Source: Elusimicrobiota bacterium
GTDB lineage: Bacteria > Elusimicrobiota > Elusimicrobia > UBA1565 > UBA9628
DNA length: 64,000 bases
NCBI GenBank assembly: GCA_036676805.1
Contig: JAKFCD010000056.1
Coordinates: 2,966 to 66,965, forward strand
Reading direction: 5' to 3'
Part shown: piece after piece, positions 21,798 through 43,031 of the stretch
Numbering within the stretch: position 1 is the stretch's first letter
Layout of the letters: every line of letters begins with the position of its first letter
Translations under genes and position numbers: made by a program
Notes under the pieces: generated by a model
What the model saw: the letters and a program-made list of their open reading frames with translations, nothing else
The model's database searches: none
What the model was told of the DNA's origin: nothing

Positions 21798-21800
21798 GTT

Positions 21801-22622: not shown

Positions 22623-23250
22623 GGTAGTCCTGGACGAGGATGCCGTAGGGCGACTCCTGGGAGCGAGGGACTTTGAGGAGCACGATGTCGTGCTCGAAGA
22701 CCACCTCGCTGGCCGCCGCGTCGGGTTTGTAGGAGCCCACTTGGCGGTAGCCCTTCACCTTGCACTCGAAAACATCGGACGTGTCCCGAATGACGCGCAG
22801 CTCGGTCAGGAACAACGTCGTCTTGGTCTGGTTCGCCTTCAGGTTCTCGACCGTGTTCTCGCGCTTGAGGAGGTCGTTGGCCTTGGTTTGGAACTCGGGA
22901 GTCATCATCGTGAAGGCCAGGCGCAGGTCGGCGTCGTAGGTGTAGGCGTTGAGTTCGATGAAAAAGCGCTCGAAGAGCGCCAGGAAGTTGCGGACCTCGG
23001 CTTCCCCCACCGGCGGCTGACGGTCGATCCCGGACAGCGTGACCGACTGCCCATTGCCATCCACCTTGATGACGACGGGCGGCCGGCGCGACTGGACCCG
23101 CAGCAGGGCCAGCGCCAGAATCGCCACGGTGATCGCGAGCCACAGCGCGGTCCACAGAGCCTTATTGGCGCTCTCCAGACCGCCCCAGACCTCGTAATAG
23201 GCCGGACGGCCGAGCAGAAGCGTCTCTGACGCGGGAGTGTTGGTCGTCAA
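22600..23250 (-). CDS. VirB8/TrbF/TraK-like protein
   Basis: Single TM then PVVIKVDGNG, EAEVRNFLALF and LRLAFTMMTPE; TTGA overlap with the upstream gene. Confidence 0.75.
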   Translation of the reverse strand: MTTNTPASETLLLGRPAYYEVWGGLESANKALWTALWLAITVAILALALLRVQSRRPPVVIKVDGNGQSVTLSGIDRQPPVGEAEVRNFLALFERFFIELNAYTYDADLRLAFTMMTPEFQTKANDLLKRENTVENLKANQTKTTLFLTELRVIRDTSDVFECKVKGYRQVGSYKPDAAASEVVFEHDIVLLKVPRSQESPYGILVQDYHESVFKR

Positions 23251-24251: not shown

Positions 24252-24949
24252 TTGTCTCCTCTCTGTTCGGTCTGCCGGGGCAAGGCCCCGGGCGCGCGCT
24301 TCTCGACGCTCTTGCGGATGCTCTCGATAAGCCGCTGCTCGCCCTGCTGCTGGCGCACCTCGGTCGCAAGCCGCATGGACGAGATCTCGATGAGCCGGAG
24401 GTTGTCCTCATGGAGCTGAGTCATCATCTGGATCTGCAGACCCGCGGCCTTGGCCGAGAGGTTCGCGGCGTCCTTGGGCGAGAGACCGTTCGCCTGCTTG
24501 GCGATCTGGATGCCGACCTTGCGTCCCGAAATCACGTCGGCGAGCCCGTCGCCGGCGTAGCGCATGTTGTTGGCGATGCTACGGTCGACGCTTCCGAAGA
24601 AGCGGTCTACCTTGGTATCGGTGTTGTAGGTGTTGATGAAGTCTCGGTCCACGTTGCTCTTGAGCTCGTCGCCCATAAGCTCGGCGGTGTTCTTGAGCAT
24701 GTCCCCGACGTTGTGAAGGAGTCCCTTGCCGCTGTTGAGGCGCTGGAATTCCTTGTAGTAGCGCACGGAGGCGTCGTAGTTCTGCTTCATCATCCTGATC
24801 TGCTCGATGACCTTGAGCTTCATGAAGGCCTGGTAGGCCTTCTGCTCGGCATACTGAAGGCCGGACATGGCCGTGTCGAAGATGAGCGCGTGCGCCGGCT
24901 GCCCCCACAAGAGCAGCAGCGCCGCCGCCAAGGCGAGCTTGTTCCTCAC
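24248..24949 (-). CDS. VirB5/TrbJ-like secreted helical protein
   Basis: Signal peptide, helical Q-rich content, located between VirB4 and VirB6. Confidence 0.55.
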   Translation of the reverse strand: MRNKLALAAALLLLWGQPAHALIFDTAMSGLQYAEQKAYQAFMKLKVIEQIRMMKQNYDASVRYYKEFQRLNSGKGLLHNVGDMLKNTAELMGDELKSNVDRDFINTYNTDTKVDRFFGSVDRSIANNMRYAGDGLADVISGRKVGIQIAKQANGLSPKDAANLSAKAAGLQIQMMTQLHEDNLRLIEISSMRLATEVRQQQGEQRLIESIRKSVEKRAPGALPRQTEQRGDK

Positions 24950-27384
24950 TTTCCCTCCGAGAGCTTGAGCAGGATGTCCGTCTCAGACAGGCCGAGATTC
25001 TCCGCGCGGACCTTTTCCTCGGTCACGTGGTCCTTGGCGTCGGTCGTGCAGATCCAGTAGTCGAGCGGGCAGGGCTCAACGCGGGCGACGACGGCGCGGC
25101 CTCCGAACTTCACGAACAGGTCGGAGAAGACGCGGGGCTTGGACTGCAGGAGCTTGACCGCCTCCACCTCGTTCTCGTTCAAGTCGAACTGAGACAGCAG
25201 CTCGTGGCCCTTGGCGAGCTTGAGGACGTACTTCACGTAGGAGTTGGCGATGATGGCGTTGGCCGCCTTCGTGTCGAGGAAGTCCTTGGGCGACTGCGAG
25301 ATTGAGAAGATCGCTCCGTTGAACTTGCGCGCCGTGCGGTAGAGGTTCTCGATGAGCTCCGAACCCACGTCGTCGTTGAAGAACTTCCAGCCCTCGTCGA
25401 TGGCGATGATCTTCTTCAAGCGTCGGTTCTGCAGCTTGGCCCATATGACCGAGCGGATGACGAAGAAGTACACGCCTTGCAGGTCGGGGTGGTTCTCGAG
25501 GTTCTGCAGGTCGAAGACGACGAGACGGTTCTTGAGGTCGAGCCGGCCCTTGCGGTCGAAGAGCCGGCCGTACATGCCCGTGGTCCACAGCTCCAAGGCG
25601 TCCGCGTAGGCCTTGGCTTTCGGACGCTCGCCCGATAGGCGCGAAAGCTCCCGGCGCACGTCCGAGAGCGTGACCTCCTCTTTGCCCGCGTAGGCCGCCT
25701 TGATGGCGGTCTCGAGGAAGGCCTTCTCTGTGGTGCTCACGCTCTCCCCGGCCTTAAGGCACATCCGCGAGATGAGCAGCGAGAGGTAGGCCACGGCGTC
25801 CCCGTCGAACTCCCCTTCCGGCGCGATCTCGAAGCGCGGCGGGAAGGGGTTGAAGCCGAACTTCTCCGACAGCTCCACCTCCAGGTACTCCCCGCCGAAG
25901 GCGCGGGCGAGCTTGCGGTAGGAGCCGCCCACGTCGATGACAACGACATGATTCTCCGGCGACTCGGCCAAGTAGGCGCTCAGGATGTAGTTGGTCGTGA
26001 AGCTCTTGCCCGAGCCCGTGGTCCCCAGGATGAGCCCATGCTTGGCGGGAAGGTCGTCGTCGAAGGGATCGAGGCCGACCAGCTCGCCCAGAGGGGTCTC
26101 GAAGAGCATCTTCTTCTGCCGGCTGCCCCGCCAGGAGCCTGACAACGGCAGGAAACCCGAAAGGGCGTCGGTCTGGATGTAGAACTGCCGATTATTGAGC
26201 CGCGCGTGGCCCGGCACCGAGCCCAGGAAGAGGCGGAAGTGGTTCATATCGTCTGAAAGTCCTTCGGCCGAGGCGAAGTCATGGAAGGAGCCGAGCACCG
26301 CCGCGGTCTTGTCGCGCAAGGTCTGGGGGTCTTCCGCGCGCACGAGCACCGAGAGTGAGAAGCGGAACAGCCGCTGGGCCGTGGCGCGGATCTCGGTCAG
26401 CAGCTCGTCGAGCTCCTGGTGCTTGCGCTCGGCCTCGTAGTTCTTGCTCATGGCCGAGAAGGCGAGCGTGCGGGTAATGTTGTTCTTGAGCTTGAGGCTT
26501 GAGACCGCCTTCTCCGCGTCGAGCGTGTGGACGGTGAGGTTCAGGTCGCAGTCCGGCCACAGGCTGTCGAGCAGACGCCAGGCGTAGCCCGGGTGCGCCG
26601 TCTCCGGGAGGCGCAGCAGGCTCACGCCGCGGTAGTAGGCGTCGCCCACGCGCACGTGGTCGAACTCCTCCCTCAGGGGCGTCGCCGCCGCCTGCTCGCG
26701 CAGCGTCCGCAGGGGTGAGACGCACGAGAGGGGCAGGCCTTCGGCCTTGGCCGGGTTTAAGTGCCGGTAGGCGAGGTCGAGCAGCTCCTGCGAGTCGAGT
26801 TTCCGGGATTTGAGGCCGAGGTTGTGCAAGCGCTCGGAGACGACCTGATCGAGCGCCGCGTGCTCCTTGCGCCGCAGTGCGTCGAACTCGGCCGTGACCT
26901 GGCGCATCGGGCGCTTGAAGCGCGGAATGATGGGCGAGACGGGCACGAGCCCATCCTTGGGATGGCTGGTCACGAAGAGAAGGCAGCGCCGCCGTTGGAG
27001 AAACTTACGCTCCAGCGCCTCGCACTTCTTCTCGATGACGAGGCGAGACAAAGCGTCAGCGTCCGGGTGCGCGTTCGACCCGCGGAAGGCCCGGATCGTC
27101 TCCGGGTCGCCCTTGCGGACCTGGACGACGAACTGGAGCGTCACGTCGGCCGGCAAAGCGTTGAGGAAGGCCCGCGCCTGAGTCTCGAAGAGGTCGGCGC
27201 GCGCCGGATCGGCCAGCCGCAGGCTGTCGAGCTCCAGCTCGTAGGCCGAGGACATGGAGAGGTCCACTCCGATCAGGACGCCGTCGCCCAGGCTCCAGAG
27301 GTTGAGGAACTGGGGCAGCGGCGGGACCTTGGGCCCGCGAATCGCCTGGCGCAGCGTGGTCAGTCCCATTTCAACTCGGTTCAA
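24946..27384 (-). CDS. virB4: VirB4-family conjugation ATPase
   Basis: GTTGSGKSF Walker A, IAIDEGW Walker B, RTARKFNG and ISQSPKDF. Confidence 0.95.
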   Translation of the reverse strand: MNRVEMGLTTLRQAIRGPKVPPLPQFLNLWSLGDGVLIGVDLSMSSAYELELDSLRLADPARADLFETQARAFLNALPADVTLQFVVQVRKGDPETIRAFRGSNAHPDADALSRLVIEKKCEALERKFLQRRRCLLFVTSHPKDGLVPVSPIIPRFKRPMRQVTAEFDALRRKEHAALDQVVSERLHNLGLKSRKLDSQELLDLAYRHLNPAKAEGLPLSCVSPLRTLREQAAATPLREEFDHVRVGDAYYRGVSLLRLPETAHPGYAWRLLDSLWPDCDLNLTVHTLDAEKAVSSLKLKNNITRTLAFSAMSKNYEAERKHQELDELLTEIRATAQRLFRFSLSVLVRAEDPQTLRDKTAAVLGSFHDFASAEGLSDDMNHFRLFLGSVPGHARLNNRQFYIQTDALSGFLPLSGSWRGSRQKKMLFETPLGELVGLDPFDDDLPAKHGLILGTTGSGKSFTTNYILSAYLAESPENHVVVIDVGGSYRKLARAFGGEYLEVELSEKFGFNPFPPRFEIAPEGEFDGDAVAYLSLLISRMCLKAGESVSTTEKAFLETAIKAAYAGKEEVTLSDVRRELSRLSGERPKAKAYADALELWTTGMYGRLFDRKGRLDLKNRLVVFDLQNLENHPDLQGVYFFVIRSVIWAKLQNRRLKKIIAIDEGWKFFNDDVGSELIENLYRTARKFNGAIFSISQSPKDFLDTKAANAIIANSYVKYVLKLAKGHELLSQFDLNENEVEAVKLLQSKPRVFSDLFVKFGGRAVVARVEPCPLDYWICTTDAKDHVTEEKVRAENLGLSETDILLKLSEGK

Positions 27385-27674
27385 GCCTTATCTCCTTTCA
27401 TGCTCTCGGCGTCGTCAAACGCGCAGACCGCCTTGAAGCGGCTCGCGAGTACGTAGCGCGTCAGGTCCAGCACGTAGCCCTCCGGCTTGTTGCGCTTGAG
27501 CGCGCGGATGCCGAAGTACGTCAACAGCAGGACGACCCCGTTTGCGAACAATCCCTCGCGGTTGAAGCTGAACGCGAGGAAGAAAACGAGCAGGAGCAGC
27601 ACCCCGTCGGCCAGTTCCAGGCCGAAATATTTGTCTGGCAAGTTGACGTTGCGGTACACTTGAACTGCGTTCAT
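27381..27674 (-). CDS. VirB3-like small membrane protein
   Basis: 97 aa with two TM segments and VYRNVNLPDKYFGL; TTGA overlap with virB4. Confidence 0.7.
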   Translation of the reverse strand: MNAVQVYRNVNLPDKYFGLELADGVLLLLVFFLAFSFNREGLFANGVVLLLTYFGIRALKRNKPEGYVLDLTRYVLASRFKAVCAFDDAESMKGDKA

Positions 27675-27696
27675 ATCGGAAGCTCCGGAGTCATAA

Positions 27697-28455
27697 ATGG
27701 ATCCAATCGAGACCTATATCGCCAACGTCATCGGCATCAATATCGCCGGCCATAAAGATATGTACGAGCTTTCAAATTCATTCGGGGCCGCGCCCGTGTC
27801 GTCTACGAAGATCGATCCAGCACTTAACGGCGACCCTATGAGTCGCTTGAAGTGGAGCCGTTACAACGTGCTCCTTTGCTTTGCTCGTGCTCGCTACTAC
27901 TGCATCGACGTCTTCCGGCCTCTCTTGAACTCCTCCGAATTGCCTGACGGTCAAATGCACTTTCGTCGCCTTACCGCGCTGTTAGATTTCTTCCGCGTGA
28001 TAGGAACGTTGCTTGATTCATTGGCAGAGGAGGCGAACGTTATCTATGCGTTTGGGATTCCGAAAGACAAAGTAACGATCACTTATCTGCGCACGAAGAT
28101 GGCCGACCTTCAGAGAACAGGATCATTCGCCTCCCCTCAACAAACTGACTTCATCGCAGCCATCCTTTCTACGATTCAAGATCCGCAGTTCGAGCGAATC
28201 TTCCAGTTCCGTCACCTCGCCACCCATCGCCCGAAGCTAAAGTGGATTCCAGGAGATGGTCGCTCGATGTTTCTCCCAGTCGATCCAACTCTTGATCCGG
28301 ATAACGAGTCACTTTGGAGCGCATCGTCATTTCAGCCCAAGAACTGCCCAGCGGACACAGATCTTATTGGCATGCTGAGCAGAATCTCCGATCTCATTGA
28401 CTCCTGGTATGTTTTGACGAACCGCCACTTCGCGGAGATGTACGTAAAGCCATAG
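27697..28455 (+). CDS. HEPN-domain protein (Cthe_2314-like), putative toxin/defence RNase
   Basis: R-x4-H motif QFRHLATHR; visibly lower GC; antisense to the transfer operon. Confidence 0.65.
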   Translation: MDPIETYIANVIGINIAGHKDMYELSNSFGAAPVSSTKIDPALNGDPMSRLKWSRYNVLLCFARARYYCIDVFRPLLNSSELPDGQMHFRRLTALLDFFRVIGTLLDSLAEEANVIYAFGIPKDKVTITYLRTKMADLQRTGSFASPQQTDFIAAILSTIQDPQFERIFQFRHLATHRPKLKWIPGDGRSMFLPVDPTLDPDNESLWSASSFQPKNCPADTDLIGMLSRISDLIDSWYVLTNRHFAEMYVKP

Positions 28456-28468
28456 TCGAAGCATCCCG

Positions 28469-28512: not shown

Positions 28513-29031
28513 TCAGGCGGCCGCCGCCTCCTTCTTCGGCTTCGGTTTCGGCGCGCGCACGTCCGACGGCGACTCGATGCGCTCGAGGACTTCGAGCACC
28601 TCCGCGGCCACCTCCCAGCGGAAGTTCTTGCCCTGCGGGTCCGACCAGGTGCGCAGGTAGCCCTCGACGAGCACCGCGCTGTCCTTGCCGAGCGACTCGA
28701 CCTGCGCGGCCAGCCCCCTCCAAGCCACGACCGGCACGAAGGCCTTCTGCCGGATGACGTGGTTCGCGCTGTCGCGGTAGCTGCGCGTCACCGTCAGCGT
28801 GAAAACCGCCTTCTTGTGGCCCCCCGTCACCTCCACCATCAGCGGCTTGCGCGTCAGCCGCCCGATCAGGCGCGCCGAATTCTCCTCGCCGATGGGCGCG
28901 CCGCCCTCCTGCATGCTCGGCACCGTCCCCCCGTCCGTTCCTTCTTTGTCCATGCGTTCCCTCCGTTCGTCCAGTTTCTTCATCCAAGGCGCCAAGATAT
29001 CCCCGGCGCTCCGGTACTCAAGGCCGGCCAT
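28513..29031 (-). CDS. ssb: Single-stranded DNA-binding protein
   Basis: NSARLIGRLTRKP, FTLTVTRSY, FVPVVAWRGLA and VLVEGYLRT. Start ATG 29031 overlaps the pilin stop (TGATG). Confidence 0.85.
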   Translation of the reverse strand: MAGLEYRSAGDILAPWMKKLDERRERMDKEGTDGGTVPSMQEGGAPIGEENSARLIGRLTRKPLMVEVTGGHKKAVFTLTVTRSYRDSANHVIRQKAFVPVVAWRGLAAQVESLGKDSAVLVEGYLRTWSDPQGKNFRWEVAAEVLEVLERIESPSDVRAPKPKPKKEAAAA

Positions 29032-29339
29032 CAGAAGCCTCCGGCCAGCCTCTTCATCAGCGCCATGAGCGAAGGCGCCAGGAAGATCAGCGCGCCCCCA
29101 CCGACTACGAAGCCGCCCTTCCTCATCGCGTCCTGGTCGCCGGCGGCGAGGCTGATGCCGACCCAGATGATGCCGAGCAGGAACACGCCCGGCCCCAGGA
29201 TCGTGATCAGCCAGTTGGCCGAGCCGTTGAGGAAGTTGCCGAGCTGACCCTCGTTGCCGCCGTACTGCGCGAAGGCCTGCGTCGCCGTCATGACCAACCC
29301 CGCGGCCGCCAAGGCCGCGCCCGTCGTCTTCTTGTTCAC
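29031..29339 (-). CDS. TrbC/VirB2-family conjugative pilin
   Basis: Signal peptide ending AFA followed by two hydrophobic helices (GPGVFLLGIIWVGI; VVGGGALIFLAPSL). Confidence 0.85.
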   Translation of the reverse strand: MNKKTTGAALAAAGLVMTATQAFAQYGGNEGQLGNFLNGSANWLITILGPGVFLLGIIWVGISLAAGDQDAMRKGGFVVGGGALIFLAPSLMALMKRLAGGF

Positions 29340-31216
29340 TGTCCACCTCCGTTATCGTTAAACGTCTCATAGACGGCTCCCGCCCGGACCATCGCGTCCA
29401 TGAGGGAAGCCGCGTCCGCGTCGGCGGCGTCGCGCCGCCGCAGCTCGTCGAGCAGGTCCCGTGCCCGCTCCGCGTCCTTCTTCGTCCAGGCCACGGCCGC
29501 GAGGTAATAGAGCTTGCGGACGTAGATGCGGTCCTTGGGACTCAGGCGCGAAACCGCCGCGTAGTCGCGCCGCGCCGTGTCCAGGACTTGCGCCGCCGCC
29601 GCGTCGTCCGGGTAGGAACGCGTGAGCGAGAACGCCGCGAGCAGCGCGCGGCCGTGCTCCCCGGCCTTCCGGGCTGCGTTGATGGCCCCTTCGAGTCTCG
29701 TGCGGTGCTCCTTAGAAGAGCGGTAGGTCTCGACTTTCAACTTGCGCGCCGAGGCCACCGCCTGGGTGCTCGCCGCCACGGACTCAAGCCATTCAATGTC
29801 GAGCGCTGCCTCCGCGTCGAGGCCGCGAGCCAAGGCCGCGCGGACATCTTCCGTACCGGCGGAGACGATCTCCGCCGAGACGGCCTTGCGGGCCTCGGGG
29901 TCGAGTTTCCCGGCGATGCGCCGCGCCAGGTCGAGAAGGTATTCGTGGTCCGGGGTCTTGTAGCGCAGAAGCATGGCGAGCATGCGATAGGTCTCCGCCG
30001 TATCTCCGGCCATTGCCTGTTTGTCGAGCTGCGCCCGCAGCCGGCGGATGTCCTCGCGCCGGCTCACTTCCAGCGAGCGGCGGTGCAGTTCGCGCGCTTC
30101 TTGGTCCTCCGGCTTGAGCAGCGCTGCCGAGGCCAGGCTCTCGACGGCCTCCTCGTAGCGCTGGTCTTTGAACAGCTCCCGGCCGCGCGCGAAGGCCTCG
30201 CCGCCGAGCGCCTCGGAGCGCCCCTTGGCGCGGGCGTACTCATCGTCCTGGATCTCCGCCGCCGGCGCGGCGGGCGCGCTCGCGGCCTTGAGGAAGCGGT
30301 AGGTGAGCGTGAAACGGTGGTTCTTGGCGAGGGGCCGGTCCTCGAGAGCGTAGTCCACTCCGAAGCGTCCGTCGGCGGTCTTGAAGCCCACGCCGACGGC
30401 GAAGCCCTCGTCGAGACCGAAACGCAAGGTCAGCACGTCCTGCAGCGTATAGGAGGCTCCGAGACCCATGCGTAGCTCGGTCTCGCCGACGAGCTTGCTC
30501 AGGCCCACGCCCAGCATCGCCCGGTCCTTGCGGATCGAGCCTGCGGTGAGGGACACGCGCGAGAAGCCGTCGAAGGAGACGCTCACGCCGCCGCGCAGCT
30601 CGCGCGGCAGGACCTCGGGGTCCGAAGCGAGCTTGAGGCGAGGCGTCAGGAGGTTCTTGATGACCGCGCCCGCCGACCACAGGGGCCGTCCCAGCCACCA
30701 CGCGTCGTCGCTTGAGGACTCGAAGCGCGCTCCCGCGTCCGCGCCGAAGCCGCGGTCCTTGTGGCCCGCGAGGTTCGAGCTGAGCATGTTGAAGGTGCCC
30801 CCCGCCGCCCAATGGTCGCCGAAGCTCCTGGCGAAGCCCGCCATGTACTCAGCCTGCGAGGCCGCGACCTCATAGCCGGGGTCGTCAACGGCGGTACGCG
30901 CCGTGATCTCTCCGCGGTAGAGCTGAAGAGCGCCCAGGCCGAAGGTTCCCAGGCGCGAGGGAACGGTGAGGCCGATGAAATCGTAGCGGGCCCCGTCATA
31001 AAGGAATTGGTGCTCGCCGGTCACCGCCCCGCCCGCGCCGGCCAGGCCCGCCGGGTTCCAGTGGAGCGCGGTCGGGTCCTGGACCACGGACACGGCGGCG
31101 CGGCCCAGGGCCGCGCCCTGCGCGCCGGGGCTCTGGCTCATGATCGTAGGCGCGGCGTACAACGGCAGGGCGCCGAGGTAGATCATCAAGAACTTGTAGA
31201 GGAGGCTCGTCATCAT
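29336..31216 (-). CDS. PorV/PorQ (UPF0164)-like beta-barrel fused to a C-terminal TPR/helical region
   Basis: GAQGAALGRAAVSVVQDPTALHWNPAGL and DYALEDRPLAKNHRFTLTYRF, then TPR-like helices. Confidence 0.8.
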   Translation of the reverse strand: MMTSLLYKFLMIYLGALPLYAAPTIMSQSPGAQGAALGRAAVSVVQDPTALHWNPAGLAGAGGAVTGEHQFLYDGARYDFIGLTVPSRLGTFGLGALQLYRGEITARTAVDDPGYEVAASQAEYMAGFARSFGDHWAAGGTFNMLSSNLAGHKDRGFGADAGARFESSSDDAWWLGRPLWSAGAVIKNLLTPRLKLASDPEVLPRELRGGVSVSFDGFSRVSLTAGSIRKDRAMLGVGLSKLVGETELRMGLGASYTLQDVLTLRFGLDEGFAVGVGFKTADGRFGVDYALEDRPLAKNHRFTLTYRFLKAASAPAAPAAEIQDDEYARAKGRSEALGGEAFARGRELFKDQRYEEAVESLASAALLKPEDQEARELHRRSLEVSRREDIRRLRAQLDKQAMAGDTAETYRMLAMLLRYKTPDHEYLLDLARRIAGKLDPEARKAVSAEIVSAGTEDVRAALARGLDAEAALDIEWLESVAASTQAVASARKLKVETYRSSKEHRTRLEGAINAARKAGEHGRALLAAFSLTRSYPDDAAAAQVLDTARRDYAAVSRLSPKDRIYVRKLYYLAAVAWTKKDAERARDLLDELRRRDAADADAASLMDAMVRAGAVYETFNDNGGGQ

Positions 31217-33741
31217 TTCACCACCAGGAGGAAGAAGGTCGCCGTCTCGGAAGGCCCGTCGAAGCGTACGCGGCCGACATAGCTGCCGTTCATGAGGGCG
31301 CGGCCGTGCCGGTCGCGGCCGTCGAAGCGGACCTCGCTGATGCCGGGCGGCACGCGGCCGTAGTCGCGCTCGTAGAGCGTCGTGCCGAACTCGGAGTAGA
31401 TCGTGAGCACGGCGCGCTGGTAGCCGGAGGACGGCGCATTGAAGACGACATTCGTTCCCCCTCGGGCCGGGTTGAATGGGTTGGGGTAGTTGTAGACGCG
31501 CGGGAAGCTGTCCGCCGCGGCCAAGGTGAACAGCTGCAGCGGCGTCTGGCTGGACGCCCCATACGGGTTCTCGGCCGTGACCTTGAAGTAATAGCTGCGG
31601 TAGTAGTCGAGGCCGGTGAGGCGAAGGCGCACCGTGTTCCCGTCCTCCAGCGCCTCGGCCTGGGGTTTGGCCGCCAGGGCCGTGGTGTGCAGCGCGCTCG
31701 CGCCGGCGGCCTGCTCGACGCGGGCGACGGCCGACAGCTCCAGCGGCGAGCCGCCCAGGTAGGCCGTGTAGGAGATGGGATCGCCCTGCGGGTTCGTCAC
31801 GCGCTCCCAGGAGACCTCGACGCCGTCGCGCATGGTCTTGACCGTCGGCGCCGCCATGAAGGGCGCGGTCAGTCGCAGAGGGTCGGGCGGGTCATTAAGG
31901 AAAGTCGCGATGAAGGTCCGAGTCCCCGCGTCGGACACGCCGCCCACTCCGTCGACCGCGACGACGCGCCAGTAGAGGGTCGTGCCGTAGCTGAGGTCGA
32001 GCGGGTAGAAGGTGAACACGCCTTCTTGGACCAACACCGAGGCGGTGGGATCAGTCGAGAGGTAGACCCGATAGCTCACCGGGTCCTCATCGGCATCCTC
32101 CGATTCGAGCCAGCGGAGGTCATAGCGGCTCGCGCGCGTCGAGATCGCGCCGGTCGAGAGATAGAGCGGCGTGGTGGGCGGCGTGTTGCGAAACAGCGGG
32201 GCGTAGCTCTGCTCAGCGCCGCCGTCCATGAGGCTCTCGGCCTGATAGTCGTCCCGAGCGCGGACCGACCAATAATAGGTCGAACCGAAGGCGAGGCCGG
32301 CCACGGTCATGGCGGACGCGGTCGTGGTCGCGATCGCGGGCTGGGCCTGATCGTGGCGCCGCCAAGACACTTCGTAGACCGGCACGTCGCCGTCCGGGTC
32401 CGTCGCCCGGGTCCAGGAGAGGACCACGGAGGCGTCTCGCGTCACCACGCTGCCCGTGCCTTTCATGACGGTGAACGGCCCGGGCGGGACATTCGTGAGC
32501 CCGAGGACGAAGTTCTCGACCGAGGAGGCGCGGCTCTGAAGAGGCAGACCAAGATACGAGTCCCGCGCGGTCACGCGCCAGTAGTAGGTCGTGCCGAAGG
32601 CGAGCGGCGCCGTCACGAAGTCCGCAGTCTCGGAGGTTCCGGTGCTGTTGAGGACGAAGGGCTTGGTGCCGATCTCGAGCGCGTAAAGGATGGGGTCGCC
32701 GTCGTTATCCGTGGAGGATTGCCATCGCAACCACGCGGCGGAGGAGTGCTGGATCACCGCGCCGAGCGGCGCGGACGGCGCGGGGACGGTGGGCCCCTCG
32801 TTGAGGACCATGCGGCGCAGGGGCGCACGGCCCGCGGAAGTCAGGTAAAGAATGCGTCCATCCCACGCGGAGCCGATCGCGGAGTCGGCCGTCAAAGTCG
32901 TCACCGGGCTGCCGCCGGATGTTAGCTTGACCACGCCCTGCGGGCAGCCGCCGGGACCGCACGCCAGTTGGCTCAAGTAGAGCGAGGAGTCTCCGTCCAG
33001 CCACATGCCCCGCGGATTCGCCAAGCCGCCGAACCAGGAAGCGGGGGTCTGGCTCTCAAGGGAGCCGTCGCTCGTGAACCGCAGGATCTGTTGGCAGGAG
33101 ACGTCAGCCACGACGAGCTCCTGCTGGAGGCCGACGGCGATCTTGGAGGGCGTATAGCAGCTGGTCGGGGTGGCGCTGATGCCGGGCAGCTCGACTTGGC
33201 TAAGAAGATTTCCCGCGAAGTCGTAGGCGTTGACGTAGCCCTTCATGCCGCTTGCCGGACAAGGACAACCCAGACATTGGACGCAGTAGTAGCTCTTCTG
33301 ATTTTGGAAGCTCAGGTGGAGGCGGGCCCCGACCTTATCGATCGCGGCCGACATAAGGCTCGCAGTGCTGATATAGGCCCCTAGCGAGTATGTGGATTGG
33401 CCAAGGGAGTAGCCGGTATTGAGGAAGCGCTTGAGCGTTATGCCGCCGCCCCCCTCCAGGATATCCACGACGCCCGAGGGCTCCACGGCGAAGGCCAGCG
33501 GCGCGCTGACGCCCGCGGCGAAGCTGAACAGCGGTTCGAGACTCGGCGTCCGGAAGGCCGTCACCGAATAGCTTGTCGCTCCCGGGGCCAGCATGAGGGC
33601 GTAGAGATTGCCCACCGAATCGCGGTCGAGGCCGGCGATGGTGGAGCCGGCCACGCTGAATGTCGCCTGTTCCACATAGGACGCCGCGCGGGCGGACGCG
33701 GCCGCCGCGGCGGCCATGACGACGAGGATGAGTTTCTTCAC
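31213..33741 (-). CDS. Secreted protein with beta-propeller-like N-terminus, Fn3-like repeats and a T9SS-CTD/FlgD-Ig-like C-terminal domain
   Basis: Signal peptide; repeated L.W..S.D.DGD...Y.....TYYWRV.A units; C-terminus VYNYPNPFNP...IYSEFG...FDGRDRHG..LMNGSY. Confidence 0.8.
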   Translation of the reverse strand: MKKLILVVMAAAAAASARAASYVEQATFSVAGSTIAGLDRDSVGNLYALMLAPGATSYSVTAFRTPSLEPLFSFAAGVSAPLAFAVEPSGVVDILEGGGGITLKRFLNTGYSLGQSTYSLGAYISTASLMSAAIDKVGARLHLSFQNQKSYYCVQCLGCPCPASGMKGYVNAYDFAGNLLSQVELPGISATPTSCYTPSKIAVGLQQELVVADVSCQQILRFTSDGSLESQTPASWFGGLANPRGMWLDGDSSLYLSQLACGPGGCPQGVVKLTSGGSPVTTLTADSAIGSAWDGRILYLTSAGRAPLRRMVLNEGPTVPAPSAPLGAVIQHSSAAWLRWQSSTDNDGDPILYALEIGTKPFVLNSTGTSETADFVTAPLAFGTTYYWRVTARDSYLGLPLQSRASSVENFVLGLTNVPPGPFTVMKGTGSVVTRDASVVLSWTRATDPDGDVPVYEVSWRRHDQAQPAIATTTASAMTVAGLAFGSTYYWSVRARDDYQAESLMDGGAEQSYAPLFRNTPPTTPLYLSTGAISTRASRYDLRWLESEDADEDPVSYRVYLSTDPTASVLVQEGVFTFYPLDLSYGTTLYWRVVAVDGVGGVSDAGTRTFIATFLNDPPDPLRLTAPFMAAPTVKTMRDGVEVSWERVTNPQGDPISYTAYLGGSPLELSAVARVEQAAGASALHTTALAAKPQAEALEDGNTVRLRLTGLDYYRSYYFKVTAENPYGASSQTPLQLFTLAAADSFPRVYNYPNPFNPARGGTNVVFNAPSSGYQRAVLTIYSEFGTTLYERDYGRVPPGISEVRFDGRDRHGRALMNGSYVGRVRFDGPSETATFFLLVVK

Positions 33742-35486
33742 GACTTCACCTCCGAAGGTTCGCCTGATCCGTAGTCCGGGACGGCCGCACGCAGGTCGAG
33801 GCCGCTTTCCGCCTCGGCGTCCACGGGCCGCAGGGGCGGCACGGCGAGGGTCCGCGCGACCTCACGCACGCGCGCGGTGCGGACTAAGCACTCGGCCCGG
33901 CCGGGCGAGAGCACGAGCGCCGTGCCGGGCTCCAAGGACTTGAGCTGGTTGGGGTGGACCTTGAAGCGCTCCACCTCGCGGCGCGAGCGGTCGCCGGTGC
34001 GATGGTCTCCCAGGAGCGCGCTCTCCACGCGCTCCGTGTCGCTCGTCGTCGTGCGCGTGCCGAGGGTCGTCGCCCAAAACTCGGCGTCCTCCGGGTTCGG
34101 CGAGCGGAAGCAGACCTTGCAGCCGGAGGTGTTATTGAAGACCACGGACTCGAAGGCCGCCACGTCCATCCCCTCCACGCGCTTGAGCTGCCCCAGGTCC
34201 TGGTGCGAGAGGATCGTGCGCAACCTGGCCGAGCCCACGGTCGCCACGAAGGAGGCGAAGACCGGCGTCGCGAACTCGGCGAACTCGTCGAGGATCACGG
34301 TGGCGGGTCCGGGCTTGGGCTCGGTGCGCTGGCGCGCGGCCGCCACCGACAGGAGCCCCGAGATCACCATGCGCCCGAGCGGATTGGCGAGCACCTGGAG
34401 ATGTCCCACGGGGACCGCGAAGTAGGCGGCGTGGCCGCGCTCGAAGATGTCCTCGAGGCGGATCTGGGGCGAGTAGCTGTTGAGGATTTCACCCAAGGCG
34501 CCGGTCGTCCATGGCCGGAAGGCCGAGATGAGAGCGCTGCAGTCGGGGTTGGCCGTAAACTCCTCGCGAGCCAACTTCACCATGCGCTGGTCGCGGCAGA
34601 GCCTGAACGCCTCCGTGCGAGCCTCAGGAAAGGCGAAGTAGCAGTAACAGTCGCGCAGCGTGAAACCCCGGCCGGTCGAGCAGAACACCTCGGCCATGCT
34701 CTGCACCTTGGCGTAGTCGACCGCGCGGTAATAGTCCTGCCCCTCGCCGGAGGAGGTGGGTTCGCGGCCGATGGCGCGGGCGATCTGGTTCGCCACGGCG
34801 GTCGCGTCCTGGCCGGAGACCGGCCGGATCGGGTTGAAGGTCATGGAGCGGTCGTCCTGAGGGTTGAAGTAGCGCACCGAGTCGAGCCGTCCGGCGACCC
34901 CGGCGGTCTTGAGGAACTGGTCGAAGTCGCCGCGGTCACCCTTGGCTTCCATAAAGAAAAGAGGCAGGCCCGCCTTCATGTCCTGGGCGGCGAGCGCCAG
35001 CAGGAGCTGGGACTTGCCCGACCGAGTCGGACCCACGACCTGCATATGCCCCTCGCGCTCGCGCTCGGTGAGGTTGATCCGGCGCTTGGAGCTGGTCAGC
35101 CCCAGGAAAGTCTCCTCGCCCCGCCCCGATTGCAGCCGCCGGCCGAGTTCCTCATCCACGATCTTGGAATCCGCGGGCGTCTCCCAGTCCTCCTCGTCCT
35201 GAGCCGTGGCCTTTCGTCCGGCGGCTCCGAGCCCCACGGCCGCGCCGAAGCAGGCTGACGCCGCCGTCCAGCCGAGCCGAACGACGCTCCGGCGCGGCTC
35301 GTACCAGCGGCCGAAGTCCCGGTGAGCGCCGCTCAACCAGTCCACCGTCCGCCACGGCATGAGGGCCACGAACAGGGCGGCGGCGAGCCCCGTCAGCGCC
35401 CCGCCGAGCGCCCGGCGCTCGCTGCGCAGGCCGGTCAGGCCCGCGAGCATCACGGCCATGACGGCGAGGAAGGACCAGGGGCTCAT
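33738..35486 (-). CDS. virD4: VirD4-like type IV coupling protein
   Basis: N-terminal TM segments, VGPTRSGKS, VILDEF and ILSHQDLGQL. Confidence 0.9.
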   Translation of the reverse strand: MSPWSFLAVMAVMLAGLTGLRSERRALGGALTGLAAALFVALMPWRTVDWLSGAHRDFGRWYEPRRSVVRLGWTAASACFGAAVGLGAAGRKATAQDEEDWETPADSKIVDEELGRRLQSGRGEETFLGLTSSKRRINLTEREREGHMQVVGPTRSGKSQLLLALAAQDMKAGLPLFFMEAKGDRGDFDQFLKTAGVAGRLDSVRYFNPQDDRSMTFNPIRPVSGQDATAVANQIARAIGREPTSSGEGQDYYRAVDYAKVQSMAEVFCSTGRGFTLRDCYCYFAFPEARTEAFRLCRDQRMVKLAREEFTANPDCSALISAFRPWTTGALGEILNSYSPQIRLEDIFERGHAAYFAVPVGHLQVLANPLGRMVISGLLSVAAARQRTEPKPGPATVILDEFAEFATPVFASFVATVGSARLRTILSHQDLGQLKRVEGMDVAAFESVVFNNTSGCKVCFRSPNPEDAEFWATTLGTRTTTSDTERVESALLGDHRTGDRSRREVERFKVHPNQLKSLEPGTALVLSPGRAECLVRTARVREVARTLAVPPLRPVDAEAESGLDLRAAVPDYGSGEPSEVKS

Positions 35487-36292
35487 CGCGCGGCCTCCGC
35501 CGCGCCCAAAGTGATCGCGCGGCTTTCCACCGCCCCCTGGAACACGCCGCAGCCCGCGGACCGGCGGAACTCGTCCAAGCCGCAGGCGTAGACGAAGGGC
35601 GCGCGCTGCGCGCGGGCGTTCTTAAGGATGATGGCCGCCCCTCCCGGCCAACCCGTGAGGTATAGGACCGCGCCACCGCGCGTCAGGCGGCGTCGGTAGG
35701 TCTCGAAGATGTCCTCATAGCGTCGCTTTGACTTCTGTGTCAGCTCCACCTCGATCGCCTTGGGCTCGGGCGACTCGATCCAGAGGTCGGAGGCCCCCTC
35801 GACCACGAGGCGCCGGCGGCCTCCCGTGTGCGTCCAGACGGCCTTAGGGTGCTGGCGGGCGGCGGGCAGGCCCAGGACTTCCGTGAGGACCAGGCCCACG
35901 GCGGAGACCTTCAGCTCGTGGCGGATCATGGCCTCGCTCACGAAGTCGCGGATCTCGGGACGACGCTCCACCGGCTCGTCGCGCAGCGCGTTAAAGCCCC
36001 GCTCGGTCAGCGTATAGGCCTTCGGCTGGCGCAGGAAGGAGTGCCCGTTGATATAGCCTTGGGCCTCCAGAGCGTGGACGCGGTTGAAGACGCCGAGTTT
36101 GTAGTCCTCTCGCTCCATCTTATTGAAGAAGCGCTCGATGAGCTCGGCCTCGCCCAACTTCGGCTCCAGGCCCAGCCCCACCATCTGGCCGATGCCGAGC
36201 ACGATCCACTTCTCAAGCGCCGCGAGCATCTTAAAGTCCCGCGCCGTGAGCTGGATTTCCCCGCGCCGTATCTCCGCCGCCGTCTTCGTCAT
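35483..36292 (-). CDS. Replication-relaxation (MOB-C-type) relaxase
   Basis: LTARD..ML..L, YTLTERG, HELKV and D-x11-E-x-E (SDLWIESPEPKAIEVEL). ATGA overlap with the T4CP. Start reassigned to ATG 36292. Confidence 0.75.
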   Translation of the reverse strand: MTKTAAEIRRGEIQLTARDFKMLAALEKWIVLGIGQMVGLGLEPKLGEAELIERFFNKMEREDYKLGVFNRVHALEAQGYINGHSFLRQPKAYTLTERGFNALRDEPVERRPEIRDFVSEAMIRHELKVSAVGLVLTEVLGLPAARQHPKAVWTHTGGRRRLVVEGASDLWIESPEPKAIEVELTQKSKRRYEDIFETYRRRLTRGGAVLYLTGWPGGAAIILKNARAQRAPFVYACGLDEFRRSAGCGVFQGAVESRAITLGAAEAAR

Positions 36293-36299
36293 CTGTTGA

Positions 36300-36625
36300 G
36301 TTCTCCCTCTGTTGCCGCTGCTGTTTTTCCGTTCCCTGTCTTTCCCTTCCGTCTTTTCTCTTTTGTTTCCGTTGCTGCTGTTGTTGCCGTTGCTGTTGTT
36401 ATTTTTCTTTCTCTTTCCCCTTTGCTGCCTTTTGCCCTCTGTCCTCCTGACCCCTTCATCCCACACCACTCTTTTGTGGTTGGGAGGGAGGGGTCAGGAG
36501 GCGAACGCGCCAACGGCGCGGACGAAGAGGGCAAGGTTTGGCAGCAATATCCGTGACTTCCCGCCCACTACCTTTCTGACTCCCCCCTCGGACATGCCCG
36601 AGGACCCGCCCGAGGGGTCCTTCTC
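36300..36625. other. Candidate oriT region
   Basis: Non-coding gap between the RHH gene and the relaxase, containing a pyrimidine-rich tract and a 13-bp inverted repeat CCTCCTGACCCCT/AGGGGTCAGGAGG (36443-36455/36489-36501). Confidence 0.5.
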
Positions 36626-38011: not shown

Positions 38012-39061
38012 TTAGGCGGACGCCTGTCGGCGCTTGCGGAGGTTGCCGAAGCCTAGTTCGGTGCGATACTGCGCGATGGAACGGAGTGAAAGCCGGACCT
38101 GGTAAAGGCGGTCGATCTTGCGGCCCAGTTCTTCATCCGTCGCGTCGGGATATTGGCGAACGAGATCGTGGAGGCGATCCCGGATCAGGGATTTACGGCT
38201 GGGAACGAGCGTCTTCATCGGCGCCTCAAGTCCCCACGGAAGCTGGATCGACTTGTTCGAGATCAGGCGGTTGAGGACGCTCGGCGTGATGTCGAGCTTG
38301 TCCGAGAGCTCACGCTGGGTCAGGGGACGGCGTTGTCCCGGTTCGCCGCTGACGAAGAACGGCGCCTGGGCCGCGATCAGCGCTTCGAGCACCCGGTAGA
38401 GCGTGCTCTTGCGGCGGTCCAGCAGGCCGAGGTCCCGGAGAAACCCCTCCAGGCGACGCGCCTCCGGAGCGGGAAGGTCTTCGAGCATTCTGCGGCTCTT
38501 ATCCTCGTCTACCTGATAGTATCCCTTCCAAATCTGGCGATTAAAGAAGGCGAGCCCAGGTTTCCCCTTCTCCACGGTTATCCCCGCGACCGCGCTGTAG
38601 GTCTTCGCGGGCGCGGCGGACGACGCGGCCCCATCGAACTCGGCTTGGACGTACAGTTTGTTGACCAACTCCCGCAGCCGCCCGGCTTCCTCTTTCGAAA
38701 TCCGGCATACGCGCGCGCGCTCGTCGTCCGTGTAGCCCTCGTCGCTCAGGAAGAACTCCTGAAAACGCTTCTCTCCGACCTTCTGGAGGAGCCGGGCGAG
38801 GTCCCCTTGCCCGTCGAGCGCCGGGACGCCGTCGCTGGCCGTGCGAAGGCCCCAGCCCCCGAACCTCTGGGCCATGAAGCCCGCACCGGCATAAGGCTGG
38901 ACCGAGATCACCTTGGCATGAATGAGGCGCCGAAAGAGAACGTCGGCCTCGAGTTCGCGCACCCGGCCCGCGAAGTCCGCTTCGGGCAGCTCCAAGAGGC
39001 GGGCCAGCTTGATGCCGACCTGGACGCTGCCCCGGCCCGAAGTCGAGGCCCGGAACGTCAT
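38012..39061 (-). CDS. Divergent, compact sigma-54 (RpoN)-like factor
   Basis: Region-I-like LARLLELPEADFAGRVRELE, HTH RPLTQRELSDKLDITPSVLNRLISNK, and RpoN-box variant SLRSIAQYR. Confidence 0.85.
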   Translation of the reverse strand: MTFRASTSGRGSVQVGIKLARLLELPEADFAGRVRELEADVLFRRLIHAKVISVQPYAGAGFMAQRFGGWGLRTASDGVPALDGQGDLARLLQKVGEKRFQEFFLSDEGYTDDERARVCRISKEEAGRLRELVNKLYVQAEFDGAASSAAPAKTYSAVAGITVEKGKPGLAFFNRQIWKGYYQVDEDKSRRMLEDLPAPEARRLEGFLRDLGLLDRRKSTLYRVLEALIAAQAPFFVSGEPGQRRPLTQRELSDKLDITPSVLNRLISNKSIQLPWGLEAPMKTLVPSRKSLIRDRLHDLVRQYPDATDEELGRKIDRLYQVRLSLRSIAQYRTELGFGNLRKRRQASA

Positions 39062-39267
39062 TTCCGGCGGCCGCCGCGCAACACCGACGCGTAAGAGGCG
39101 ATGCGCTCGGCCACCGAGCGCGCCTGCTCCTCCATGAGCCGCACGAGCTCAAGCTCCCTGTCCGTGGGCACGCCGTGCAGCTGCGTCGCGGCCCGTTTGA
39201 GGTTGGAGCACTTGGCAATGACGTCGTGACACAAGTCCACCAGTTCGTCGGCAGGATTAGTCGCCAT
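39058..39267 (-). CDS. Stand-alone HisKA/DHp-like small protein
   Basis: 69 aa; LCHDVIAKCSNLKRAATQL...LELVRLMEEQARSVAERI resembles an H-box two-helix hairpin; overlaps both neighbours. Confidence 0.5.
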   Translation of the reverse strand: MATNPADELVDLCHDVIAKCSNLKRAATQLHGVPTDRELELVRLMEEQARSVAERIASYASVLRGGRRK

Positions 39268-40615
39268 CGTTCTTGCTCCGATGCTTTCCGGTCCGCTTGA
39301 GCGACTTGTAGAGCAGGCCCGTGTCGATCTTCAAGTCGGCCATGACCTTGGTCTTGCGGCCCTCGTTGTCCGTCAAGCTGCGCTGGATCGCCCCGTCCTC
39401 GAAACGATTGACCGCGGCGTAGAGGCCGTTCTCGAGGATATAGCTGTATTGCTGCTCGGTCAGGAACTCGTCGGAGGACTGGCCCGCGCGGGTCGTCGCC
39501 AAGATTTGACGCGCCGCATCCGCGGTGACGCGCCCCGAATCGCCGCCCGCCGCCAAGTCCACGAATTTCTTGAGCTCGCGGACGTTGCCCTGCCAGTCGT
39601 GACGCAATAGCAGCTGTTTCGCATCCGCCGTGAACGACAGTCGCAGCCCGCCGCGGTTGAAGAAGGCGATCAGCGGGAGGATGTCGGCCTTTCGCCTGGC
39701 CAAGGGCTTGAGCTCGATGGTCAGGCCTTGGACACGTTGGAGGAAGTCGAAGCGCAGGCACCCCTTCTTGACGAGGTTCTGGAGGTTCTCCAAGGTCGCG
39801 CTGATGATCCGGAAGCGGGACTTCACGGCACTGTCCGCTCCGAGTGGATAGAAGGCCTTCTCCTCGATGGCCTTGAGAAGCTTGGTCTGCATCGCAAGGC
39901 TCATGGAACCGATCTCGTCCAAGAAAAGCGTTCCCCCGTCCGCCAGGAGGAGCTTGCCCTTGCGTCCGTCCGCGGCGCCGGTGAAGGCGCCCTTGCGGTA
40001 GCCGAACAACTCCGCTTCCAGCAGATCCTCCGTGTAGGCCGCGCAATTGATCGCGACGAACTGCCCTTTCCGTCCGGACCGGCCATGGATGACTTCGGCC
40101 AAGCTCGTCTTGCCGGTGCCGGAGGGCCCCAGGATGATGACCGGCAGTTCCGAGGCTGCGTACTTGAGGGTTTCGGCGACGTTGGCGCGCGTGGCCGCGT
40201 CCTCAGTGACGAACAGGTCTTGGAACAGGCGGTCCTCGCCGCTCTGCGGGCTCTTCCGGAGGAAACGCGCGATGACCGCGCCGACGTTCTCCTCCTCGTT
40301 TCCCTTGGCGTAGAAGTCGTCGCAGCCCAGCTCGTAGGCGCGCTCAACCACCGCCTCAGAGTCATGGCCGGACATGACCACGCAGTAGGCCCCCGCCTTG
40401 GCCGCCATGGGGACCAACTCCAGGCCGGACTTGTCGTCCGACTTGCCGCTGAGCTTGAGGTCGATGAAGCAGATGTCGTTGCGGCGGGCGCCGATCTTCT
40501 TGCGGCCGGCCGCCAAGTCCGAGGCGAATTCAACATCATGCTCGCTCAGCTCCCCCTTCACGAGTTCGCGAGCGAGCGGATCGTCCTCAATGACCAAGAC
40601 CTTGAGCTTTCTCAT
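39257..40615 (-). CDS. NtrC-family sigma-54-dependent response regulator (bEBP)
   Basis: REC (VIEDD, FIDLKL), AAA+ GPSGTGKT, ELFGYRKGAFTGA, FLDEIG, WQGNVREL and a C-terminal HTH. Confidence 0.95.
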   Translation of the reverse strand: MRKLKVLVIEDDPLARELVKGELSEHDVEFASDLAAGRKKIGARRNDICFIDLKLSGKSDDKSGLELVPMAAKAGAYCVVMSGHDSEAVVERAYELGCDDFYAKGNEEENVGAVIARFLRKSPQSGEDRLFQDLFVTEDAATRANVAETLKYAASELPVIILGPSGTGKTSLAEVIHGRSGRKGQFVAINCAAYTEDLLEAELFGYRKGAFTGAADGRKGKLLLADGGTLFLDEIGSMSLAMQTKLLKAIEEKAFYPLGADSAVKSRFRIISATLENLQNLVKKGCLRFDFLQRVQGLTIELKPLARRKADILPLIAFFNRGGLRLSFTADAKQLLLRHDWQGNVRELKKFVDLAAGGDSGRVTADAARQILATTRAGQSSDEFLTEQQYSYILENGLYAAVNRFEDGAIQRSLTDNEGRKTKVMADLKIDTGLLYKSLKRTGKHRSKNDGD

Positions 40616-42778: not shown

Positions 42779-42810
42779 GAATAAAAAAACACGTCGCAAA
42801 GGAGAACCCC

Positions 42811-42960: not shown

Positions 42961-42970
42961 ATTAAAGATG

Positions 42971-43009
42971 GTCGGGGAGGCTGGCCTTCGCGGGCCGGCC
43001 TCCCCGATC
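42971..43009 (+). terminator. Stem-loop between precursor and MFS genes
   Basis: GTCGGGGAG-G-GCTGGCC-TTCGCG-GGCCGGC-CTCCCCGAT; likely an mRNA stabiliser or partial terminator. Confidence 0.55.
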
Positions 43010-43031
43010 TCTTCCCCAAATTAACTATCTT

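Follow-up and report, generated by a model that had tools for sequence, protein, structure and literature searches.

A cargo and PorV-family barrel cassette in the conjugation operon of an Elusimicrobia integrative and conjugative element

A 64-kb stretch of DNA from an Elusimicrobiota bacterium, here called the window (coordinates are 1-based on it), carries on its minus strand the transfer operon of an integrative and conjugative element (ICE). Two adjacent genes in the middle of this operon, between those for the coupling protein and the pilin of the element's type IV secretion system (T4SS), encode an 842-residue protein with a distinctive C-terminal domain (CTD) and a 626-residue outer-membrane barrel protein. 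The two genes are a cassette of CTD cargo and dedicated PorV-family barrel, embedded in the T4SS operon of an Elusimicrobia ICE. When the position of the pair, its conservation, the pattern by which the tip of the cargo protein is swapped and the analogy with the secretion system of type IX (T9SS) are taken together, there is a slightly better than even chance that the pair displays a swappable mating-pair adhesin on the surface of the donor cell.

The pair and its place in the operon

The conjugation locus runs from 40.6 kb down to 19.3 kb, within a stretch from about 10 to 58 kb where the GC content is 59-70%; the GC content is 70-75% at the left end of the window and 68-70% at its right end. 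The 5' part of the locus encodes, in order, a sigma-54 activator, a Sigma54_DBD protein, proteins of 242, 83 and 328 residues, and the coupling protein. In the middle follow the 842-residue protein (the passenger), the 626-residue protein, which joins the barrel to a tail resembling tetratricopeptide repeats (TPRs), a TrbC pilin, the single-stranded DNA-binding protein SSB, a TraL-like protein and TraC/VirB4. The 3' part encodes a 233-residue secreted helical protein, VirB6-like and VirB8-like proteins, a 273-residue protein with a transmembrane (TM) anchor, a 134-residue protein, a short TrbI/VirB10, a 99-residue protein and a tyrosine integrase. A VirB4 ATPase, a coupling protein, a pilin, VirB6-, VirB8- and VirB10-like proteins and an integrase thus share one locus, which marks it as a conjugative T4SS of an ICE. 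The pair and its immediate neighbours are:

33738-35486, minus strand: VirD4/TraD-type coupling protein, 582 residues; matches PF02534 (T4SS-DNA_transf), PF12696 (TraG-D_C) and PF10412, with TIGR03743 below its cut-off
31213-33741, minus strand: passenger, 842 residues; signal peptide, with cleavage likely after ASARA, then a propeller, four fibronectin type III (FN3) domains and a C-terminal sandwich
29336-31216, minus strand: barrel-TPR protein, 626 residues; signal peptide, PorV/PorQ-family barrel at about 25-310, TPR-like alpha-solenoid at about 325-611
29031-29339, minus strand: TrbC/VirB2 pilin, 102 residues; PF04956, E 9e-13
28513-29031, minus strand: SSB, 172 residues from the ATG at 29031; PF00436, E 1e-12, and a TIGR00621 match

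An earlier note on this DNA had described this gene order and five stop/start junctions, and all the open reading frames (ORFs) and overlaps are found where it had placed them. Four of the junctions are 4-nt overlaps, namely ATGA between the 328-residue and coupling-protein genes (35483-35486), GTGA between the coupling-protein and passenger genes (33738-33741), ATGA between the passenger and barrel genes (31213-31216) and GTGA between the barrel and pilin genes (29336-29339), while pilin and SSB genes meet in TGATG with a 1-nt overlap at 29031. Since overlapping junctions run on downstream, through the genes for TraL, TraC, the 233- and 334-residue proteins and the VirB8-like protein, the coupling is a trait of the whole tightly packed operon rather than of the pair.

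The AlphaFold2 model of the passenger (pLDDT 84) has an N-terminal beta-propeller at about residues 20-318 and four FN3 domains at about 319-744; the corresponding Pfam fn3 match has E 1.8e-14. The last 98 residues (745-842, YNYPNPF...LLVVK) are modelled as a seven-strand sandwich of the T9SS type-A/FlgD-Ig kind, with all seven strands between residues 749 and 840, that is, at the extreme C-terminus. As modelled, propeller, four FN3 domains and sandwich make up an architecture typical of extracellular adhesion proteins. The best Foldseek matches are ectodomains that combine propellers and FN3 domains (ROS1, Sevenless and contactins), and PorZ, which consists of two propellers and a CTD, matches with E 3e-11. 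When used as a profile, the C-terminal domain hits FlgD-Ig domains and, in the PDB, PorU's CTD (6za2, residues 1061-1144, E 2.6e-3), and its best matches among T9SS proteins are the CTDs of PorU and PorZ. When the CTDs of the family are isolated, 10 of 14 match TIGR04183 (best 1.6e-6) and 13 of 14 match the CTD region of the PorU model, and a generic CTD hidden Markov model (HMM), described below, finds the domain in the window passenger with E 1.6e-8. The description of the 842-residue protein as "Fn3/CTD-like" in the earlier note is borne out by these matches. Because the window protein alone stays just under the Pfam cut-offs, its C-terminal domain is best called type-A-like, which is not to say a proven T9SS signal.

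The barrel of the 626-residue protein matches the NCBIfam model of the PorV/PorQ family (NF033709) with 96.9 bits against a cut-off of 90, and residues 25-308 cover profile positions 6-326 of 326. The equivalog models are far off (PorV NF033710, 32.6 bits with cut-off 250; PorQ NF033711, 36.1 bits with cut-off 220), and no match to Pfam PF19572 is found for this barrel. By these scores the protein is a member of the PorV/PorQ family and an orthologue of neither PorV nor PorQ. The AlphaFold2 model, for which 38 homologues were used (pLDDT 81), places about 14 strands at residues 63-307, followed by an all-helical repeat at 325-611 with pLDDT above 90. When the barrel model is compared with the PDB by Foldseek, Flavobacterium johnsoniae PorV comes first (8gl6_F and 6h3i_F, E 1e-8, TM-score normalised to the target 0.55-0.63), and FadL ranks after it with E 2e-4. 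With the family cut-off passed and PorV closest in structure, the label "PorV-like" given earlier is well founded. The accompanying label "TPR" holds at the level of profiles, where the helical half matches consensus TPR proteins (E 7e-31, the strongest stretch being profile positions 17-57), but not at the level of the single sequence, as the window protein itself has no Pfam match to TPRs; the Foldseek matches of the model to TPR proteins are weak. Since an even number of strands puts both ends of a barrel on the periplasmic side, the solenoid is presumably periplasmic.

Conservation, divergence and the wider cassette family

TraC homologues fall in two tiers, with at least 61% and with 33-46% identity to the window, and every named homologue comes from Elusimicrobia or Elusimicrobiota metagenome-assembled genomes, many of them from groundwater. 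In the upper tier, L001, L002, L004, L005, L006, L007, L008, L014, L102, L103 and the 560-kb contig P0021 all have the pair between their genes for coupling protein and pilin, at TraC identities of 63-97%; it is present in every close Elusimicrobia element long enough to show the site. Among six distant relatives examined (TraC 33-44%), the pair is found in three, all with TraC identities of 38-44%. One of these (L017) has a gene for a 273-residue CTD protein followed by one for a 658-residue barrel-TPR protein, another (L104) has CTD and barrel-TPR proteins of 887 and 618 residues, and in the third (L019) a 1537-residue protein with CarboxypepD_reg domain and CTD is followed by a 500-residue protein and then a 606-residue barrel-TPR protein. 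Passenger and barrel genes overlap in all pair-bearing loci except this last one, where the 500-residue gene stands between them. The position of the pair is thus kept over host GC contents from 43 to 68% and down to TraC identities of 38-44%. The Endomicrobium relatives L010-L012 (TraC 40%) are outside these counts, as their contigs end short of the region upstream of the pilin gene. The earlier note had proposed that absence of the pair from related ICEs would count against it, and the inspection of synteny speaks for a pair conserved at this operon position.

Two observations concern individual elements. In two of the pair-less relatives (L018 and L106), the pilin gene is preceded by a gene for a small Sigma70_r4 protein, and the TrbI gene is followed by an OEP/TolC-like gene. 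In L008, which is the complete Elusimicrobiota genome CP096137.1 (JAD_PAG50586_1), the genes for coupling protein, passenger, barrel, pilin and TraC are each split into several ORFs, the sign of an element in decay or else of indel errors in a long-read assembly.

The domains of the passenger have diverged to very different degrees. The CTD is its best-conserved domain, with 59-66% identity where the rest has 37-57%. To exemplify, consider first L102, which is 95% identical to the window in TraC, 90% in the barrel, 89% in the pilin and 89% in the CTD, while identity is 52% in the FN3 stalk and 44% in the propeller. Consider then the closer relative L006, with 97% identity in TraC, where the synonymous divergence (dS) from the window is 0.06 in the CTD, 0.12 in the FN3 region and 0.66 in the propeller, with the break in divergence near residue 340-360. 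The ratio of nonsynonymous to synonymous divergence (dN/dS) in the same comparison is 0.15 in the propeller and 0.08-0.25 over the three regions. Because dS jumps in the propeller while dN/dS remains at 0.08-0.25, the pattern indicates that the propeller tip has been exchanged by recombination (allelic replacement) rather than altered by selection on point mutations. The CTD, by contrast, has the signature of an anchor that stays matched to its barrel and co-varies with it.

The window also holds a second cassette of the same kind, in its right-hand flank and outside the ICE operon:

58146-63949, minus strand: chromosomal paralogous cassette

Its cargo has at least 1641 residues with NHL, Big_13 and ZU5 domains and a CTD, and the ORF may run past the end of the window; the match to Por_Secre_tail is weak, and the generic CTD HMM gives E 1.4e-13. 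The gene for a 293-residue barrel (58146-59027) follows with a 4-nt overlap. This barrel scores 37.2 bits against Pfam PorV (PF19572; cut-off 27) and shares 30% identity with the ICE barrel along its whole length (E 5e-20). Just downstream of the chromosomal pair, at 55856-58081 on the minus strand, lies the gene for a 741-residue protein with no family match, and barrel and 741-residue gene are adjacent again on the independent Logan contig L020.

A metagenome scan seeded with a three-sequence alignment of the chromosomal barrel gave 80 loci (L022-L101). In 67 of these, an ORF on the same strand lies upstream of the small barrel gene, and an iterated HMM finds a terminal CTD in 52 of the 67, compared with 17 of 365 control ORFs drawn from the same loci. 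Several of these control matches open three-gene cassettes. Both CTDs of the window are picked up by the generic CTD HMM that results from these loci. Three-gene forms with a second barrel occur as variants (L049, L050, L052, L062, L082 and L094). When the full family of the 626-residue protein was run as a profile against 1.8 billion cluster representatives, it gave 93 proteins at E <=1e-30 and 1069 at <=1e-10, and at least 112 of the 147 top representatives scanned are forms of 500 residues or more with an N-terminal barrel. One of them, P0270, is a barrel-TPR fusion of about 610 residues that lies among the housekeeping genes pheT, zapA, rny and folD in a genome with 46% GC (locus L107); its gene overlaps by 4 nt the preceding one, which encodes a 1249-residue CTD protein, and there is no T4SS gene nearby.

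Because a barrel-TPR protein and its CTD cargo also occur in the T4SS-free chromosomal context of L107, the barrel is not specific to T4SSs, and nor is the TPR tail. The idea that the tail is a T4SS-specific adaptor is ruled out by the same locus, together with the large family of fusions among the representatives. The ICE pair is one copy of a cassette that is very common in environmental metagenomes, CTD cargo then PorV-like barrel, with or without TPR tail. That the ICE lineage recruited a pre-existing module, as the earlier note had suggested, is supported both by the paralogous pair on the window's own chromosome and by the wide spread of the cassette type outside ICEs. The same note had called the arrangement a hybrid not recognised from described T4SS classes. 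This part stands in so far as a PorV-family barrel and CTD pair does lie in a T4SS operon and no paper was found that links PorV to T4SSs; it does not stand as a rare hybrid of two systems, the cassette being very common.

Other features of the window

The gene upstream of that for the coupling protein had been labelled a relaxase. The remaining genes of the transfer locus that bear on this and on the type of T4SS are:

35483-36469, minus strand: 328-residue protein; low-complexity N-terminus rich in K, N and S, PadR-like winged helix, and a Replic_Relax-like C-terminal part with the look of PD-(D/E)xK
20729-27674, minus strand: remaining T4SS genes, from Pfam and NCBIfam scans, among them the following four entries
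27381-27674, minus strand: TraL/VirB3-like protein
24946-27384, minus strand: TraC/VirB4
within 20729-27674, minus strand: 233-residue secreted helical protein, VirB6-like protein of 334 residues, VirB8-like protein of 216 residues, 134-residue protein, and the 273-residue TM-anchored protein in the VirB9 position, without CagX match
20729-21409, minus strand: short TrbI/VirB10 with signal peptide
19305-20351, minus strand: tyrosine integrase at the operon end; PF00589; in the same place in related elements

The 328-residue protein has no Pfam or NCBIfam match. A profile of its homologues aligns by hhalign with the syntenic PF13814 (Replic_Relax) protein of L018 with 93.6% probability and E 2e-7, and among six homologues four match PadR and one matches Replic_Relax. 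No MOB-family relaxase domain was found in any window ORF scanned with Pfam or NCBIfam. The label therefore does not hold as given, as the protein is not a recognisable relaxase; it is the sole relaxase candidate of the window, a remote relative of Replic_Relax and not a canonical HUH relaxase, and may be regarded as a candidate for DNA processing.

TraC scores 264 bits against the F-type equivalog TIGR02746, whose cut-off is 567, and is by this measure not of the F class of mating-pair formation systems (MPF-F). TraL is matched weakly, and the general scans, which did not include searches with profiles specific to these proteins, gave no TraN-, TraG-, TraH-, TraU- or TraW-type matches.

Between the genes for SSB and TraL, an 838-nt stretch (27627-28464) replaces 61 nt of the closest relatives (L003, L006 and L008). 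It contains an antisense ORF of 252 residues with ATG start (27697-28455) that has no Pfam or PADLOC match, and apart from one internal 12-nt inverted pair no repeats were found across it; it looks like a small gene inserted inside the transfer operon. Upstream of the transfer genes, at 38012-40615 on the minus strand, a gene for a 349-residue protein that consists only of a sigma-54 DNA-binding domain lies beside that for a sigma-54 activator of the response-regulator type. A search of the window for the sigma-54 promoter TGGCAC-N5-TTGCW gave 9 matches at up to 2 mismatches, with 17.6 expected by chance, and no convincing -24/-12 promoter.

Defence-type cargo occupies 12205-19163, between tRNA-Ser (11703-11794) and the integrase gene, and encodes a DUF5677 protein, a PDC-S35 TIR effector (17073-18116), a protein with an EAD domain and PDC-S06 (AAA_13/SMC-like, 14207-17068), the last split into ORFs of 774 and 175 residues. 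In a search for attachment sites, no exact repeat of tRNA-Ser of 13 nt or more was found elsewhere in the window. On the plus strand, 40760-51411 holds a cluster with B12-radical-SAM, MFS, TPR, SBP_bac_5, YcaO and hybrid histidine kinase genes. The SBP_bac_5, YcaO and kinase genes have the same relative position beside the related element on the P0021 contig, and the cluster may be ICE cargo, possibly for a pathway like those of ribosomally synthesized and post-translationally modified peptides. At the left end, an ORF on the plus strand (14-8158) that is open at the window start encodes at least 2714 residues rich in Ala, Leu, Arg and Glu with the look of a coiled coil; its GC content at third codon positions is 96%, and neither a Pfam match nor a CTD was found in it.

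Proposed function, its alternatives and known systems

The proposed function of the pair builds on what is known of CTDs and their barrels in T9SSs. PorV is a carrier whose extracellular loops bind type-A CTDs (PMC10994853). In PorU and PorZ the CTDs are retained, and the two proteins remain attached to PorV and PorQ; it has been proposed that "cognate PorV-like barrels" shield CTDs from cleavage (PMC10202324). For type-B CTD adhesins, further, the anchor consists of a PorP/SprF barrel and PorE, a TPR protein of the periplasm (PMC9143113), so that there is precedent for CTDs that are retained on cognate barrels (PMC10202324, PMC9143113, PMC10994853).

In the mechanism proposed here, both proteins would be exported by Sec, the barrel would insert in the outer membrane, its TPR tail would extend into the periplasm, and the passenger would cross the outer membrane either through a T9SS-like translocon of the host or by means of the cassette itself. 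The cognate barrel would then recognise and hold the uncleaved CTD, as PorV holds PorU and PorQ holds PorZ. From this would follow that the FN3 stalk and the propeller are exposed on the donor surface, where the passenger would serve as a mating-pair adhesin that the element itself supplies. Which recipients are bound would depend on the propeller tip, which would be swapped between elements by recombination. The pair, being translationally coupled with the genes for coupling protein and pilin, would be co-expressed with the transfer machinery.

Several points weigh against this proposal. The window passenger remains below the Pfam cut-off of 27 bits in its CTD (FlgD_ig 25.4 bits, CHU_C 18.3 bits), and the whole protein has no NCBIfam match. 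The ICE barrel is compact, with about 250 residues for about 14 strands, and may be without the long CTD-binding loops of PorV. The pair is absent from three distant relatives of the T4SS (L018, L105 and L106), and the cassette type, which is also found where there is no T4SS, has no intrinsic tie to conjugation. All elements are known from uncultured metagenome-assembled genomes, and TXSScan detected T9SSs in Bacteroidetes only (PMC4793230).

The nearest known system is the attachment complex of the T9SS in Bacteroidota, with its PorV-PorU and PorQ-PorZ pairs. There, too, a 14-strand FadL-like barrel of the PorV/PorQ family holds a surface protein by an uncleaved type-A CTD, and the best T9SS matches of the ICE CTD are to PorU and PorZ, as the best structural match of the barrel is to PorV. 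The differences are that the host phylum, Elusimicrobia, has no documented T9SS, the literature placing this system in Bacteroidota (PMC4793230, PMC10202324); that the equivalog scores are far below cut-off; that the ICE barrel is fused to TPRs and its gene adjacent and coupled to that of the passenger in a T4SS operon; and that neither a sortase nor attachment partners of the anionic lipopolysaccharide (A-LPS) type are seen with the ICE pair. In PG1035-PorP-PorE and SprB-SprF, a dedicated barrel likewise anchors one CTD adhesin on the cell surface (PMC9143113, PMC10202324). The barrel has a periplasmic partner in both cases, fused as TPRs in the ICE and a separate protein there, but the barrels are PorP/SprF instead of PorV/PorQ, the CTD is of type B and not type-A-like, and the context is gliding and T9SS, not conjugation.

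In proposed function, the passenger would resemble TraN of the F plasmid and the shufflon adhesins PilV of R64, as an allelically variable surface protein, encoded by the element, that chooses recipients. There is no relationship in sequence or fold: TraN is itself a protein of the outer membrane, PilV is a pilin of the pilus tip, and neither has an anchor of the CTD/PorV type.

One alternative is structural, and is considered improbable. According to it, the barrel-TPR protein is an outer-membrane module of the T4SS itself, an anchor or pore partner that takes over part of the role of VirB7/VirB9; the TPR tail would dock on the short VirB10 and the 273-residue protein, and the CTD protein would be an accessory cap. 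The pair lies in the same operon as the VirB7/VirB9/VirB10 core complex and would belong to the same cell compartment, with the barrel gene coupled to the pilin gene. In pair-bearing loci, the VirB9 position is taken by a TM-anchored protein of 224-277 residues without CagX or DUF2381 match, and TrbI is short, with 199-229 residues and, in the window, a signal peptide. The pair-less loci have a recognisable VirB9 (CagX/DUF2381, 313-316 residues) and a longer TrbI (297-467 residues), and two of the three also have an OEP/TolC-like gene. This correlation is suggestive but is based on few loci, three without the pair compared with three distant pair-bearing ones and one close family. TPRs joined to a barrel are, moreover, the architecture of the periplasm-spanning exporters PgaA, BcsC and PelB. 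In these, as in AlgK-AlgE, a TPR solenoid on the periplasmic side extends from the outer-membrane barrel towards the inner-membrane machinery. The likeness has its limits, since the domain order is reversed in the ICE protein, where the barrel is N-terminal, since those barrels have 16-18 strands and serve polysaccharide export, and since homology is limited to the TPRs. The folds of pair and core complex are unrelated, and no described T4SS class is known to use a barrel of the FadL/PorV type. Against a structural role speaks the narrowness of a 14-strand FadL-type barrel, through which a pilus would not fit. The occurrence of barrel-TPR proteins and CTD cargo away from T4SSs (L107), in a large family, implies that the tail is not a T4SS adaptor by origin.

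It is about equally doubtful that the pair is hitch-hiking cargo, that is, a host-type surface module for biofilm formation or adhesion to substrates or particles without a role in DNA transfer. Such a reading is favoured by the abundance of the cassette type in chromosomes and by the adaptive cargo that ICEs often bear, here exemplified by the defence genes and the YcaO/radical-SAM cluster. The usual sites of cargo are, however, the ends of elements or intergenic hot spots, whereas the pair is embedded in the core operon, joined by stop/start overlaps to the genes before and after it, in a position that has been kept over the whole range of TraC divergence and host GC content given above. Least probable, and by a clear step, is a role in surface or entry exclusion or in self-recognition, where the passenger would mark carriers, block redundant mating or discriminate donors from each other: a variable, recombining surface domain on a conserved anchor is the kind of allelic diversity also expected of recognition and exclusion determinants, and the sequence by itself favours neither side, but known exclusion proteins (TraT, TraS and Eex) are small, while a propeller/FN3 protein of 842-1537 residues looks like an adhesin.

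A bolder proposal must be held rather unlikely. Here CTD/PorV-type pairs would be autonomous two-component display systems that need no SprA, in which the dedicated barrel, aided by its TPR tail, would both export and anchor its cognate CTD protein, and in this T4SS the barrel-TPR protein would in addition have replaced VirB9/VirB7. If true, this would explain why the cassette is self-contained, why it is common outside Bacteroidota and how it can be carried on an ICE.

Searches of the literature found no paper that ties PorV-family proteins to conjugation or T4SSs or that describes Elusimicrobia ICEs, and nothing on this arrangement under the terms PorV-like, PorQ-like and PorV2, FlgD-Ig with PorV, or Elusimicrobia with T9SS or T4SS. 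What is new is a conjugative T4SS with a recruited display cassette of the CTD/PorV type and without recognisable VirB9 or MOB relaxase, while the building block itself is common. The classification of T4SSs thereby gains a lineage that lacks these two recognisable components. PorV-family barrels with cognate CTD cargo form very common two-gene cassettes, TPR-fused ones included, well beyond the organisms in which T9SSs have been studied, and this raises the question of whether a CTD and a dedicated barrel are enough for surface display. How donors choose and hold their recipients is known for only a few proteobacterial plasmids, through TraN-porin pairs and PilV. Here, an uncultured phylum appears to use a plug-in display cassette with a recombining tip, which would give a handle on the host range of ICEs that can be read from sequence.

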